Source: Escherichia coli (GTDB lineage Bacteria > Pseudomonadota > Gammaproteobacteria > Enterobacterales > Enterobacteriaceae). From it: 64,000 nt of DNA. Below, one piece after another: positions 23,193 through 32,100 of the stretch; positions within the stretch are counted from its first letter, which is position 1, and every line of letters begins with the position of its first letter. Made by a program: the position numbers. The stretch lies in NCBI RefSeq assembly GCF_024298765.1, contig NZ_CP101211.1; one strand, written 5' to 3'.

Positions 23193-26100
23193 TCAGGAAC
23201 TTGTTCGCACCTTCCCTAAGAATTATCTTAATAAATCTGGTACTTAATTATTATTTTACTTATAAAGTCTCTGTGCTTTAATGGTTATGTAAGGATTTTT
23301 TGATACCCTTATACCCGATGGACCTAAGGTCACTGACAACGATGTTCATGTAGAATCTTCGTTTCTGTAATCCCTTTTGTCCTTGTCCCAAATGTTTGAT
23401 TATTATAATAAAGGCTGATCGAATGCTATCTCGCAACTCACTAATACATGGTTTACGCCGAGACCAGTTAATCGGAGTTCTGACTATTTCAGAGTTTCCG
23501 GTAGTTATGGTAGAAAGCCACTTCATTCAGTCTGAGGTTATGGGAATAAAACCCGTAATTTTTAATATTGATGAGCTTCTTGTTTCTATATCCCCAATTT
23601 CCTCTCTTAAGTTCGATTGGGAGTGGGCCCCAGTTGATACAATACTCATTGAAGTTATCATTCCACCTGTAGAGTCAGACCTTGTAAGTGCAGAAAATGA
23701 CTTCCTCCGTGATTCTGGTATCGGCCATATCCAGTGCGAGCCTGGCGGAGCATCAATACGACGTACAGTTACCTTCGTTGGTGGAATAACCGCTGATAAC
23801 TTACTGTATCAGTTGAGGCTTATGTGCGTAAGTGCGTTAAAACTTTTAGGAGAGGAACTGGGGGATGAAGTCTAAGATTAGATATGTTTTATCTGGTTTT
23901 GTTGTGATATGTGCATTTGCTGGAGTTTATAAAATCCTAAACAATGTTCCGGTTAAACCTGACCTTTTGGACTTCACTGGAAACACATTTAAAAAGACAT
24001 CACTCTTCCTGCCATGTGATAAAAGCTCGCCTTCTTTAAACATTAAAATTGCTGATAACGAGAAAATCGTGATCAACGGCATCGCTTCAAAAGTAACTTT
24101 TGTTGAAAAGGCTGACCCCGTCAAAAGCCCTGGTTTTTGTGATGATCTTGATCTAAACAATTCTCGCCTTGTACATACGGCATCTTACAGCATGGTGATT
24201 TCTGAAACCAAAACAGGATATACACTCTCAAATTTCAAGCATCTTGCCGATGATGAATCATTAGGTGGTATGTGGTTTTATCAAAAGTGACTTTTTATAT
24301 GGCAACTTCAGACTTCTCTCTTAAAAACCATAATGTAAAAGCTTTTGGTCAGGATGCAGCACTTGTCATTGAGATGAACAATGAAGATGTTAGCTCATCA
24401 AAACCTTCACCTTTTTCAAATGAGATTGATAATTATTATCTTACATTGCACGCCGCTCCGAGGAACGCCAAAAAAGATTATGACTGGGGCTCAAACCGTT
24501 CTGTACTTCTAAAATTGTCGACGAATGAAGTTATGCAGATGGCATCTGTATTTCTTAGAATCATGCATACTTTAAAAATTGATAAGAGGAAAACCTCACA
24601 TCATGGCCACGTCGTATACAAAAATATAAGCGTTACCCCAAACGAGAGGGGCGGTTTGTTGTTATCAGCAGGGATAGTTCCAGTCGATAAAGACGGCTTA
24701 AAACCCTTCATGCACATGGTCCCCGTCTCACAAATGGACTGCGTTAAAATTGGCCTCTACATACTTGGATATCTTGCTCAAAAAACGCCTTGGGTAAGCT
24801 CCGAGTCTATAATTACCGCGCTTCGCTTATCTGAAGCCAAGAATTCAAAATAGCGTATTAACATACGGAATACATGGAAAAATACAGGTTTTTTTAAATG
24901 TTATACGAACGGATATTTCTGTTTTTCATCGTAAAGTGAGTTTAATTTTGCTCAGAAAAACAGGTATTCGTCATGAGAAAATCAGGTTTAGGTTTAGCCC
25001 TGTTGTTTTCTTTAATTGCTCCGATTAAAGCGGTCTATGCCGAAGCGATTATGATTTCAGGAAAGCTACAGGCTGATTTGCCAGCCGTATCCTTTGACCC
25101 GGGGCCGGGCGACTTTGTTGCATACGTTAATTCTAACACTATCACTGCCTCAGGTGCAGGCACAGCCTGTAATGTAACGGTTGATGATCGAGCGACTTCC
25201 TCTGTTGATAACCTCGTTTGTTTTTTTGAGTGGTTACCCAATACCTTGGGATTTACTTCTAACGGTTTCACTCTTTCAGGCGTTCCCAACACCACCGGTG
25301 ATTTAAAACTACCTTACAAGATTTCTTACTTCTCTGGTTCTGAACGGAAAAAAGTTGAAATAGTAAAAGGTGAATATTCAATCAAAAGTGTGGCACCGGT
25401 AAAACCTACTATCACCGGTCTTAAATCATCCCTGAACGGATTAGTCTATGACGGCTTTTCTTTCAAATCGTATTTAAAGGATGAAGCGATCAAAGATATC
25501 GCTGTTTCTGTTGAGCCCCGCAATTATATTCAATACATCTCAATAGGTTCAGGCTCCGCCTGTGAAGTTCCTATTGGCGGAACTTCCTGTACCATTGAAG
25601 TTGGAAGCATTAAGGCCAGTGATACAGATGAACTTTTGGGTTCACGTGATATCACAATTACAGCAAACTCTAAGAATAATTATTTCGCACCTCCTGAATC
25701 CAAAAAGCTTGTTGTTAACTGGGATTATCGGCCTCCTGTAGTAGACCATACACTTTGGAATTTTACCGATGAGGCTAAAACAATCAAAGTAGGTGGCCAG
25801 GACATCTATACCGGAGCCAAAACCGTTGCTGTGGCCGTTAAGGTACCCCAGCAAGAAACAGAAGGTGAATGGTGGCTCCCAACAGCTATGTCGCTCACTA
25901 TGACTCCGGATGGCGTGTTTAAACCGACGACTAAAGTGACTTTAGATGATGGCACTGAGATTGATTTCAAACAGTCCTGGGCAACCCCTTTACGTAGAAC
26001 TTTACAGCCGGTAAGTGGACCTCAAAAAGTCGGTGATGAGTACCTCTATATCTTCGACTTAACGGATCTTATAAACGGGTCCTACGCAGCGACTTTTACA

Positions 26101-29100: not shown

Positions 29101-32100
29101 AACGTTTTCGGTAGTACGGCTACACTTTCTAAAAACCTTAACCGTGGTAAGCAGGACATAAAAGTAATTGCTTATGATGATAGTGGAGACTTTGCAACGC
29201 AGCACGTGACAGTTTTCGGACCGGCTGAAGAGGCAAGTAAGTCTGAATACACTGTATCAATACCAAGCAGTGAGTAATAAATTTTTAAATATAAAGCCGG
29301 GACATTTTGTCCCGGCTTTTTTATGCCCAACAATTGGACCTTTGAAAAATTAATACCGGAAAGTAACTTTGCTACAAAGGTATCTTTCATGGCCGCTAAC
29401 AAGGCTGCGTCTACATGCTGAGAAATTAACATCCTTATAGGTGAATATTAGGTTAGTTTGCAGACTTCCGAGCGTTGAAAAACATGGATAATAGTTACTT
29501 GGATAGAGGTGTATCTACTTAGTAAAAATATTCTTCAGTGCCAGTGAGAAAAATATGAGCGACTACATACCTAAAAAGAGAGGGCTGCTTATACTGGATT
29601 GGTATGTCCCCATTAATATTTTATTGCTGATTCTCGTTATGTGTGTCTTTTTCACCCGTTATACATTTGGATACGGTTTATTGAATGGGTGCCTGCCTGC
29701 TGATTTTTATATGATTGATCATTCGGATAAAACTATTAAAACTGGTGAACTCATAGCTTTCAACATGCCGAAATCGGTTCGTTTTATCCCAGAAAATGAA
29801 CGAGTCATAAAAATTGTTGCCGGTGTGGGCGGTGACAAACTCAAAGTAACAATGGATGGGGTTTATAACGGGGACAAATTTTTTGAAGCTAATGCACGTC
29901 GTATTTCAAAGAAATACAGTATTCCGTCCATTTTGATTGAAAAAGAATTGATAATTCCTGAAGGCGAAGTTTTCCTAATTGGGCAAACCGATCACTCATG
30001 GGATTCCCGTTTTTGGGGAACAGTAAAGCTGAATTCAGTAATTGGGAAAACATATGCGATCTTTTAATGTAAATAAAAAATATTTACCAATACTTCCTGG
30101 ACTTGCGTTATGTGCAGTTTTAAGTAATACAAATGCAAGCACTGAGTATCAACATGATGCTGACCTAATCGCTCAGCAAGCAAAAGGGCTTGGCGCTCAG
30201 GCTAAAGGTGCACAGCAGCCAGATGGGGCTCTTAGCCTTGATGCTACGCTAAATTCACCAGATGTGCAGAAGTACATTGCGCAAGCTGAAGCACTCAAAA
30301 AAAACCAGGACCTGAGCAGGCAAACAAACCGTGGTTACGTGCCCGGTATGAATGCGGATAGTGTTCAAGCAGTTATAGACCATACCCAGGCTATAAGGGC
30401 CCAAAGTAATAACTCTGATGCTGTCAACGATATAATTAGAAGACGTGATGAAATTCAGGAAAACGCCAGCCTTAATGAAGCGGCTCTGAAAGCTGTGGAA
30501 AATAAGCCGGAAGTCATGCGAGGACAATCTAAAAATATCGAAAAATTGTTTGGTTCCTCGGGCATCACAGCTGCTGACTTCGAAAGAAAAATGGATAGCA
30601 CACGTGAAGAAGCACTATCAACTGAAAATGGTATAACGATCTTTGCTTCATTTAGCTTACCGGATTATGTACTGGAAGACCTTTTACGTACGGCCTCAGA
30701 GCATAAAGCTCGTGTAGTTTTCAATGGTCTAAAGAAAGGAACTACTCGGCTACCAGAGACACAGGCAGCAATAAACCAAATGATTGTCAAAGGAAAATTT
30801 GAATCTCCTTTGATTACAATTGATCCTGATAGCTTCAGTCAGTATCAAGTAACTCAAGTACCGACAATTATTTCTCGGGAGCAAGCTCGTTTTGCAAAAA
30901 TGGTAGGGTCCTTCAACGTTGAGTTTTTTCAGCGAGAACTTGCTAAAAAACCCGATCAGGACATTTTTCCTGTTGCTGGTACGATTTATCCCGTTGAAGA
31001 AAAGAGCATCATTAAAGAACTGGAAGAACGCGCACAAAAATATGACTGGGAAGGTGCAAAAAAAAGGGCCGTTGCGGACACCTGGAAAAATCAATGGATG
31101 GTCGATCTCCCTCCTGCCCAGGAACACAAAGAATTTTTAATTGACCCTACAGTGAGGGTCACTCAGGACGTAAAAGATAAGCAGGGCCGTGTAATAGCTT
31201 CCGCCGGTGAGTTGATTAATCCACTTTCGAGATTTCCTCAAAACCTGACGATGATAATTTTCGATCCACTCAATCCGGGCCAGCTGGTATGGGCTGAGCA
31301 GCAGTATCGACAACGTCTGGGTAGTGGAAAAGTAATGCCAATGTTTACCCGTATCCAAAAAGATAATGGATGGGATCACCTAAATGATTTACGTGAAAAA
31401 TTTAACGGTAAGGTGTTTAAAGTAAACGAACAGATTATCTCACGCTTTCAGATTAAAAATACACCTGCGCTTATAACTACTGACCAAGATAAATTCCGGA
31501 TCACCCTGTTTAGCGAGGCAGAAGTCCGTGGAATCGGAGCCCCAAATCTTTCAGAGGAAAAATAATATGAAACTCGGATTTATTATAGGCGCTCTCTTTG
31601 CAACATGGCTGACGCTAAATTATCCGGACCAGATGAGAAGTTATTTTACCAAAGCCGTCGACTATATCGAAAGTGTTGCAACATTTATTACATCCAAGTG
31701 AGCATGATGGTGAAAAAATTCAAAAAGTTACTTTTAGAGTTCATTGTAGCAGTTATGCTTTCGCTTTCTATACCTGGTATGGCTATGGCAGCAGATGCTG
31801 GAGTCCCTGGGGCTATGTGTCAGTCAGCTGGAGTGTGGCAGGGCTTGATTAAGAATATCTGTTGGAGCTGCATTTTTCCCATGAGGATAATGGGCATAGG
31901 GGCTGCTCCAGAAGGCGCTGCACCTTCACGTCCGGGTTGCTACTGCACAGATCAGAACGGCGTACCGGAAATAGGTTGGCAATTGAGCTTCTTTCAGCCG
32001 GTGAAGATTGTAGAAGTTGTAAAGAGCCCCTGGTGCAGCCCCTTTCTTGAAGGCACGATGCTTCAAAAATCGCAGTTTGATATTGGTAAAAGCAACACTA

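Follow-up and report, generated by a model that had tools for sequence, protein, structure and literature searches.

The 64,000-nucleotide stretch of Escherichia coli DNA examined here (the window; contig NZ_CP101211.1 of RefSeq assembly GCF_024298765.1) carries a gene that almost certainly encodes RSP, a known protein of IncHI plasmids. The finding is correct yet already known, RSP being a named and experimentally studied protein. Our overall explanation, which we regard as very probable, is that rsp of the IncHI2 plasmids encodes this known RSP, an adhesive rod of immunoglobulin (Ig)-like domains that is exported through Sec and then by way of the pilus.

24973 to 29277, plus strand: coding sequence of rsp, the IncHI2 allele of the IncHI-type conjugal transfer protein RSP (open reading frame list, translation, PLSDB, comparison with R27).

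Listing and translation of open reading frames (ORFs) return a single long frame at these positions, with an ATG start and 1434 codons plus a stop, exactly as the initial annotation had placed it. Megablast of this ORF against PLSDB matched 1125 plasmids, 973 of them at a DNA identity of at least 99%, and the top-listed matches all carry the annotation "rsp: IncHI-type conjugal transfer protein RSP". Typing assigned IncHI2A, MOBH and MPF_F to the best match, NZ_CP037959.1, and to both of the records that we inspected; the window differs from NZ_CP037959.1 by 7 bases across its first 41 kb. An NCBIfam scan of the protein matched no model; the name "RSP" in the records must therefore stem from another naming rule. 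Comparison with RSP of the IncHI1 plasmid R27 (R0009) gives 84% protein identity over 1424 of the 1434 residues with zero gaps, indicating full-length orthology, so that the resemblance to the RSP of IncHI plasmids, suggested in the initial annotation, is in fact an identity. The two proteins have the same signal peptide, the same eight cysteines and a Big_3_3 match at the same residues (356-497; 20 bits in the IncHI2 allele versus 23.9 bits in R27), and the 16% of residues that differ are evenly distributed along the protein.

The neighbourhood of the gene was compared in the same way and includes the following genes:

23423 to 24853, plus strand: htdA, htdF and htdK, upstream genes of the AN transfer operon (record annotation; same order in R27).
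29555 to 35972, plus strand: trhF (S26 peptidase), trhW (TrbC_Ftype), trhU (TraU) and trhN (TraN), the pilus-assembly and mating-pair block 3' of rsp (Pfam, annotation).

On this IncHI (MOBH, MPF_F) backbone rsp lies between htdK and the trhF-trhW-trhU-trhN block, and R27 shows the identical order htdK-rsp-trhF-trhW-trhU-trhN, with htdA, htdF and htdK upstream in both plasmids. The products of the four downstream genes match Peptidase_S26, TrbC_Ftype, TraU and TraN, all above the Pfam gathering score, which bears out the TraF/W/U/N-like block expected directly downstream; the "TraF-like" member is here an S26 signal-peptidase homolog (TrhF, 29555-30067, 75 bits). The TraF of the F plasmid is thioredoxin-like, and the S26-type TraF is the RP4-type peptidase. 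The initial annotation had also set the gene between partition and mating-pair genes, which holds at coarse scale only: the immediate 5' neighbours are htdA, htdF and htdK, with parA/parB and a parM fragment another 2-9 kb upstream of these.

The function of RSP has been studied experimentally on IncHI1 plasmids, so that the role of the IncHI2 allele is read from orthology. In Salmonella carrying R27, RSP is a 155-kDa protein that forms an abundant band of the secretome, reduces motility and is located on flagella (PMC6764697). An rsp deletion mutant shows no detectable transfer in liquid at 25 °C, a defect that a copy supplied in trans corrects; transcript levels at 25 °C exceed those at 37 °C more than 40-fold, with some expression at 37 °C in minimal medium (PMC6764697). 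Release of RSP to the cell surface and into the medium requires TrhC, the ATPase of the type IV secretion system (T4SS) (PMC6764697), as well as TrhH and the pilin TrhA (PMC8730810), and a periplasmic pool has been reported. RSP co-precipitates with TrhH and with a second secreted protein, RSP2, and both RSP and RSP2 label the conjugative pilus (PMC8730810). Mice immunised with RSP are protected, and anti-RSP nanobodies cut R27 transfer (PMC11268884). These experiments on the R27 ortholog support, by analogy, the extracellular role in mating proposed in the initial annotation (PMC6764697, PMC8730810, PMC11268884), and RSP probably acts as a pilus-associated mating adhesin.

To describe the fold of RSP, AlphaFold2 was run on two overlapping parts (residues 24-760 and 721-1434), each with a family alignment of 57 sequences. 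Three regions of the protein are referred to below:

26038 to 26463, plus strand: Big_3_3-like Ig domain, residues 356-497 (Pfam PF13750, E = 5.6e-4, 20 bits against a gathering score of 27).
26431 to 29187, plus strand: RSP core, residues 487-1405, common to a 1843-residue IncC protein and many longer relatives (BLASTP, tblastn).
28987 to 29217, plus strand: C-terminal sandwich, presumably PKD-like, residues ~1339-1415, with Cys1340-Cys1357 (alignment, model strands).

Both models are almost entirely beta, with a mean predicted local distance difference test score (pLDDT) of 88.7 for the first part and 88.6 for the second, and strand groups counted in them amount to about six sandwiches in the first half of the protein and seven in the second, i.e., about 13 Ig-like domains. 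Foldseek comparison of the models with the PDB returned only strings of Ig, FN3, macroglobulin and cadherin sandwiches (probability 1.0, E down to 6e-17), among them DSCAM, CEA, complement C3/C4/C5, alpha-2-macroglobulins, the grappling-hook protein GhpA and protocadherins; phmmer of RSP against PDB sequences gave only chance-level matches (E > 0.2). The models thus describe RSP as a ~150-kDa chain of ~13 Ig-like beta-sandwich domains, with neither an enzymatic nor a membrane-anchor domain. The "repeated beta-rich Ig-like segments" of the initial annotation accordingly hold at the level of fold (AlphaFold2, Foldseek) and fail as sequence repeats, self-BLASTP of RSP having found no internal repeats. 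Structure prediction, then, does find Ig-like arrays. Domain annotation answers in part: the sole Pfam match in an almost entirely beta protein is the sub-threshold Big_3_3 (20 versus 27 bits), which falls on a beta sandwich in the model and scores above threshold at the homologous position of four relatives (P0014, P0018, P0020 and P0036). In the C-terminal sandwich the motifs C-x-D-x-D-G and DDSG are invariant alignment columns; we take this domain to be PKD-like from its motif pattern, and the Pfam PKD matches in relatives land two domains upstream (RSP ~1155-1240), not on the sandwich itself.

This architecture resembles that of the giant Ig-repeat adhesins (SiiE, SraP and the invasin/intimin-type Big proteins), which share with RSP an extracellular rod of tandem Ig-like sandwiches; the likeness to SiiE and SraP has been reported (PMC6764697). 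Unlike them, RSP has no detectable sequence repeats, no second hydrophobic stretch and, in the models, no non-Ig domain; its release needs the conjugative T4SS and the pilus, and its known targets are bacterial filaments rather than host receptors. We saw no type I secretion signal, beta-barrel anchor or LPXTG motif in RSP, in an inspection that included no search aimed at them. Where a repeat-type fibrillar adhesin combines similar tandem repeats with a dedicated anchor or secretion signal, membership of RSP in that class is therefore not supported, and its resemblance to the class is one of fold.

The N terminus and the cysteines of RSP bear on how such a rod would leave the cell, and with them a further gene of the Tra2 region:

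24973 to 25041, plus strand: Sec-type signal peptide, residues 1-23, with predicted cleavage VYA/EA (hydrophobicity, family alignment; rule-based).
25042 to 25083, plus strand: conserved strand-like peptide at the N terminus of the mature protein, E24-P37 (alignment).
7234 to 7986, plus strand: htdT, which encodes a DsbC-like protein-disulfide isomerase and likewise belongs to the Tra2 region (annotation).

The signal peptide, MRKSGLGLALLFSLIAPIKAVYA followed by EA, was assigned by rule: its n-region is basic, its hydrophobic core is 14 residues long, and V-Y-A occupies positions -3 to -1. It is the only hydrophobic stretch in RSP. The initial annotation had likewise called a signal peptide on this 1434-residue protein, and we find it to be of Sec type and conserved in the family, present in nearly all of the 68 roughly full-length members aligned (down to ~20% identity). 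Its sequence varies among them, with the n-h-c shape and an AxA-like site kept, and the conserved mature N terminus begins right after it. RSP has eight cysteines, which form four close pairs (66/83, 197/206, 529/554 and 1340/1357), and all eight are conserved in 64-67 of the same 68 sequences, again down to ~20% identity. In E24-P37, G30 never varies, 54 of 57 sequences have P37 and hydrophobic residues alternate in a strand-like pattern; despite being among the better conserved stretches, this peptide is a coil of pLDDT ~58 in the monomer model. As judged from this pattern, it may dock the rod onto the pilus or a partner by beta-strand addition. The C-terminal tail (last 30 residues) is acidic, disordered, least conserved and lowest in model confidence, and a C-terminal Flag tag on R27 RSP is tolerated (PMC6764697).

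These features differ from those of a one-step T4SS substrate, which lacks a Sec signal and usually carries a C-terminal translocation signal. The RSP papers make no mention of a signal peptide, although they report a periplasmic pool. Taken together, the conserved signal peptide and cysteines, the periplasmic pool and the dependence on pilin and TrhH make passage through Sec followed by the pilus the simplest reading, and we lean towards a two-step export in which RSP would first reach the periplasm through Sec and then leave it in a pilus-dependent manner. HtdT is a possible helper for the four conserved disulfides; in IncC plasmids, dsbC directly follows the RSP-like gene.

The family to which RSP belongs extends well beyond the IncHI plasmids. 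A HMMER scan of 1.84 billion representative proteins with RSP residues 24-1200 as query returned 274 clusters at E ≤ 1e-3 and 138 at E ≤ 1e-30. About 60 clusters are colinear proteins of ~1400 residues with 22-28% identity to RSP, and a class of proteins of 1700-2800 residues matches RSP residues ~480-1150. At the two distant loci inspected, one from a Tara marine metagenome, with RSP homologs 25-27% identical, the order RSP, S26 peptidase, TrbC_Ftype, TraU, TraN is kept; after TraN the Tara locus continues with a reverse ORF and a UvrD-like helicase, and the other metagenomic locus ends within TraN. The rsp-family gene is embedded in a transfer operon in every relative examined, marine metagenomic elements included. 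By this comparison RSP appears to be an old, fixed component of the H-type transfer module, beyond the IncHI plasmids (cf. PMC8730810).

A terminator follows the gene, and it shapes how we picture the expression of RSP:

29293 to 29325, plus strand: intrinsic terminator with a 12-bp stem, a 3-nt loop and a T-run, 16 nt past the rsp stop codon (sequence, folding).

The GC-rich hairpin at 29293-29319, with the T-run after it, folds with an energy of -20.4 kcal/mol (z = -5.3), a stability that none of 200 shuffles reached; the strong terminator of the initial annotation is thereby confirmed. A consensus terminator scan missed this hairpin, probably because the stem takes up part of the T-run, and direct folding detected it. 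A hairpin and T-run also follow the RSP-family gene in R27, in a Klebsiella MOBH plasmid, in IncC and at the two metagenomic loci, with stem sequences unrelated to one another and to that of IncHI2, which suggests a terminator kept in function and not in sequence. The R27 transcript study reported a predicted terminator only downstream of htdK; it placed rsp in the AN operon (htdA to trhN) and mapped promoter activity just upstream of R0009 and of trhP (PMC7366339).

In the mechanism that we propose, rsp would be read both as part of the AN operon and from a promoter of its own, with transcription stopping at the terminator, an arrangement that would yield more RSP than downstream assembly proteins. 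The Sec signal peptide would take RSP across the inner membrane to the periplasm, where the four cysteine pairs would be oxidised to disulfides, possibly aided by the DsbC-like HtdT. RSP would then exit with or through the assembling H-pilus apparatus, a route unlike that of a classical one-step T4SS substrate. Once exported, this long and flexible rod would coat pili and flagella and act as an adhesive, slowing the cell and stabilising the contact between donor and recipient in liquid. The experiments on R27 back the transcription from operon and own promoter, the pilus-dependent exit and the coating of pili and flagella; we infer the action of the terminator, the Sec and oxidation step and the transfer of the whole scheme to IncHI2.

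Other explanations share part of this evidence. RSP could serve chiefly in the periplasm or outer membrane, as an assembly or structural factor of the H-type T4SS and pilus of the kind of TraH, TraW and TraU; its presence in supernatants and on filaments would then be secondary, arising from shed pili or vesicles, and the loss of transfer would stem from defective pilus biogenesis rather than from lost adhesion. Such a role would suit the position just upstream of the pilus-assembly genes, which is conserved in very distant relatives, the Sec signal peptide and conserved disulfides, which are like those of periplasmic Tra proteins, and the co-precipitation with TrhH and the periplasmic pool (PMC8730810, PMC6764697). 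It is, however, difficult to reconcile with immunogold labelling of RSP along flagella and pili and with its abundance in the secretome (PMC6764697, PMC8730810), or with the behaviour of nanobodies displayed on other cells, which agglutinate with donors and lower transfer (PMC11268884). Moreover, the rsp deletion still mates on filters, which is unexpected without any pilus, and a 13-domain rod of ~150 kDa is atypical of an assembly chaperone. We thus consider an assembly factor rather improbable.

The original papers proposed instead an export in one step, in which RSP, as a T4SS substrate, is recognised in the cytoplasm and moved through a channel powered by TrhC. Export is lost in a trhC deletion and regained on complementation, and SSPred prediction and the authors' interpretation point the same way (PMC6764697). 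On the other hand, the signal peptide and the four cysteine pairs are conserved family-wide, a periplasmic intermediate has been reported, and the additional need for the pilin TrhA and the periplasmic TrhH speaks for dependence on pilus assembly rather than on the ATPase alone; the C-terminal tail, moreover, is acidic, disordered and poorly conserved, and it tolerates a tag. Export in one step is, in our judgement, distinctly improbable. That RSP is primarily an adhesin for host tissue or abiotic surfaces, serving virulence or colonisation like SiiE or SraP with conjugation affected as a by-product, is highly improbable: mice are protected by RSP immunisation (PMC11268884) and some rsp is expressed at 37 °C in minimal medium, but the protection shows surface exposure only, the gene sits inside a transfer operon in every relative examined, export depends on the pilus machinery, and the conjugation phenotype is direct and complemented.

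Several points weigh against the picture of a Sec-then-pilus exported adhesive rod. We know of no recipient receptor of RSP. Its domain count was read from secondary-structure strings rather than from model coordinates, and cleavage of the signal peptide and formation of the disulfides are predictions. A literature search for an rsp experiment specific to IncHI2 found none. In filter matings with non-flagellated donors, the rsp deletion transfers more than 3-fold better than wild type (PMC6764697), which indicates that RSP is not an obligatory part of the DNA-transfer channel and that its contribution depends on conditions. Finally, the dependence on TrhC, TrhH and TrhA fits the published model of a T4SS substrate as well as it fits a two-step route.

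The relatives of RSP in IncC plasmids, and its partner RSP2, extend the published picture. The genes concerned are the following:

4181 to 9712 of pPG010208: gene for the IncC 1843-residue Ig-like protein, between the pilin gene traA and dsbC.
246931 to 249321 of NZ_CP037959.1, minus strand; 254874 to 257294, plus strand; 262956 to 265412, minus strand: three full-length RSP2 paralogs of an IncHI2 plasmid, outside the window.

tblastn of RSP reaches the IncC plasmids over residues 487-1405, and residues 941-1834 of the 1843-residue IncC Big protein (ALG87338.1 of pKAZ3; WP_000606833.1 of pPG010208 has the same length) are homologous to this part of RSP, with 24% identity over 932 residues (BLASTP, E = 1e-70) and the cysteine pairs 529/554 and 1340/1357 included. 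The N-terminal ~800-900 residues of the IncC protein, by contrast, are not RSP-like; they carry the domain set of RSP2 (DUF4165, Big_3_2 and Big_3_3) and are 26.6% identical to RSP2-type proteins over residues 28-812. The gene lies in a MOBH/MPF_F transfer region and is followed by a terminator and dsbC; unlike rsp, which stands next to the S26 peptidase gene, it comes after traA. The protein of pKAZ3 has been shown to be secreted and to promote conjugation at 25 °C (PMC8730810). The IncC Big protein therefore resembles a hybrid with an RSP2-like front and an RSP-like back, a layout that fits the reported physical interaction of RSP with RSP2. RSP and RSP2 themselves share a module of ~110 residues (VEPRxYxQ...C..P.G..SC...WD..PPVV; 29% identity, E = 1e-6) in addition to Big_3_3, so that a fusion and a swap of the N-terminal module are indistinguishable from these data.

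RSP2 of R27 (R0055) is a protein of ~800 residues with an N-terminal DUF4165 domain and without the RSP core, encoded outside the transfer operon; it is secreted, contains Big domains and attaches to RSP, to flagella and to pili (PMC8730810). IncHI2 plasmids have been stated to be without rsp2 (PMC8730810). Where R27 has RSP2, however, the IncHI2 plasmid NZ_CP037959.1 encodes three paralogs of 796, 806 and 818 residues that are 39%, 32% and 35% identical to it (E = 3e-176, 1e-107 and 4e-123, respectively). Judged by protein similarity, these homologs contradict the published absence of rsp2.

The surroundings of rsp yielded further observations. Immediately downstream of the RSP gene, the IncHI-like and metagenomic loci have a trhF-type gene, which in IncC is separated from it. 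TrhF was considered as the peptidase that removes the RSP signal peptide and set aside, the idea having drawn solely on the adjacency of two genes that lie apart in IncC. Further downstream, an intact ORF of 594 residues (37053-38837, plus strand) encodes a UvrD-type helicase, which is TrhI by comparison with R27. The gene table that PLSDB gives for the matching record omits this ORF, which a distant locus also keeps downstream of TraN. Upstream of htdA, a copy of ISKpn26 (IS5 family) at 22018-23223, with its transposase at 22167-23147 on the minus strand, occupies the place of the last third of R27's parM, of a 225-residue ORF and of the region upstream of htdA; the remaining parM fragment (21362-22066) encodes a ParM of 234 residues, compared with 344 in R27. 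ISKpn26 with both flanks occurs in only 92 PLSDB records, compared with ~1100 carrying the same rsp, so the insertion marks a sub-lineage; it may affect partitioning or the promoter of htdA and the AN operon. Position-by-position comparison of the window with NZ_CP037959.1 gives 7863 mismatches in 36000-64000, the near-perfect match ending at ~41 kb (about 41300); the mismatches beyond that point likely reflect an indel or rearrangement relative to NZ_CP037959.1.

A broader reading of these data is tentative, and we think it somewhat unlikely as a whole. RSP would found an ancient and widespread family of Sec-exported, disulfide-stabilised, pilus-borne Ig-rod adhesins that is core to MOBH/F-type ("H-type") conjugation, from enterobacterial plasmids to marine elements, and that works as a two-part device with RSP2-type partners, E24-P37 being a possible docking strand. 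As part of this reading, RSP and its DUF4165/Big partner would be separate in IncHI and joined in one polypeptide in IncC, and the three diverged RSP2 paralogs of IncHI2 might confer distinct specificities for surfaces or recipients.

IncHI2 plasmids are major carriers of mcr-1 and other resistance genes, and surface-exposed RSP has been proposed as a vaccine or nanobody target against plasmid spread (PMC11268884). The identification of RSP in the window adds nothing in itself to that proposal; the accompanying results could refine the published picture. If RSP is a Sec substrate with conserved disulfides, then DsbA, HtdT and the Sec step become possible points of intervention, and the RSP2 homologs of IncHI2 matter for strategies that assume RSP to act alone in these plasmids. 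The signature of Sec export and disulfides, the wide spread of the family, the hybrid protein of IncC and the RSP2 paralogs of IncHI2 are thus modest refinements to the biology of a known conjugation protein.

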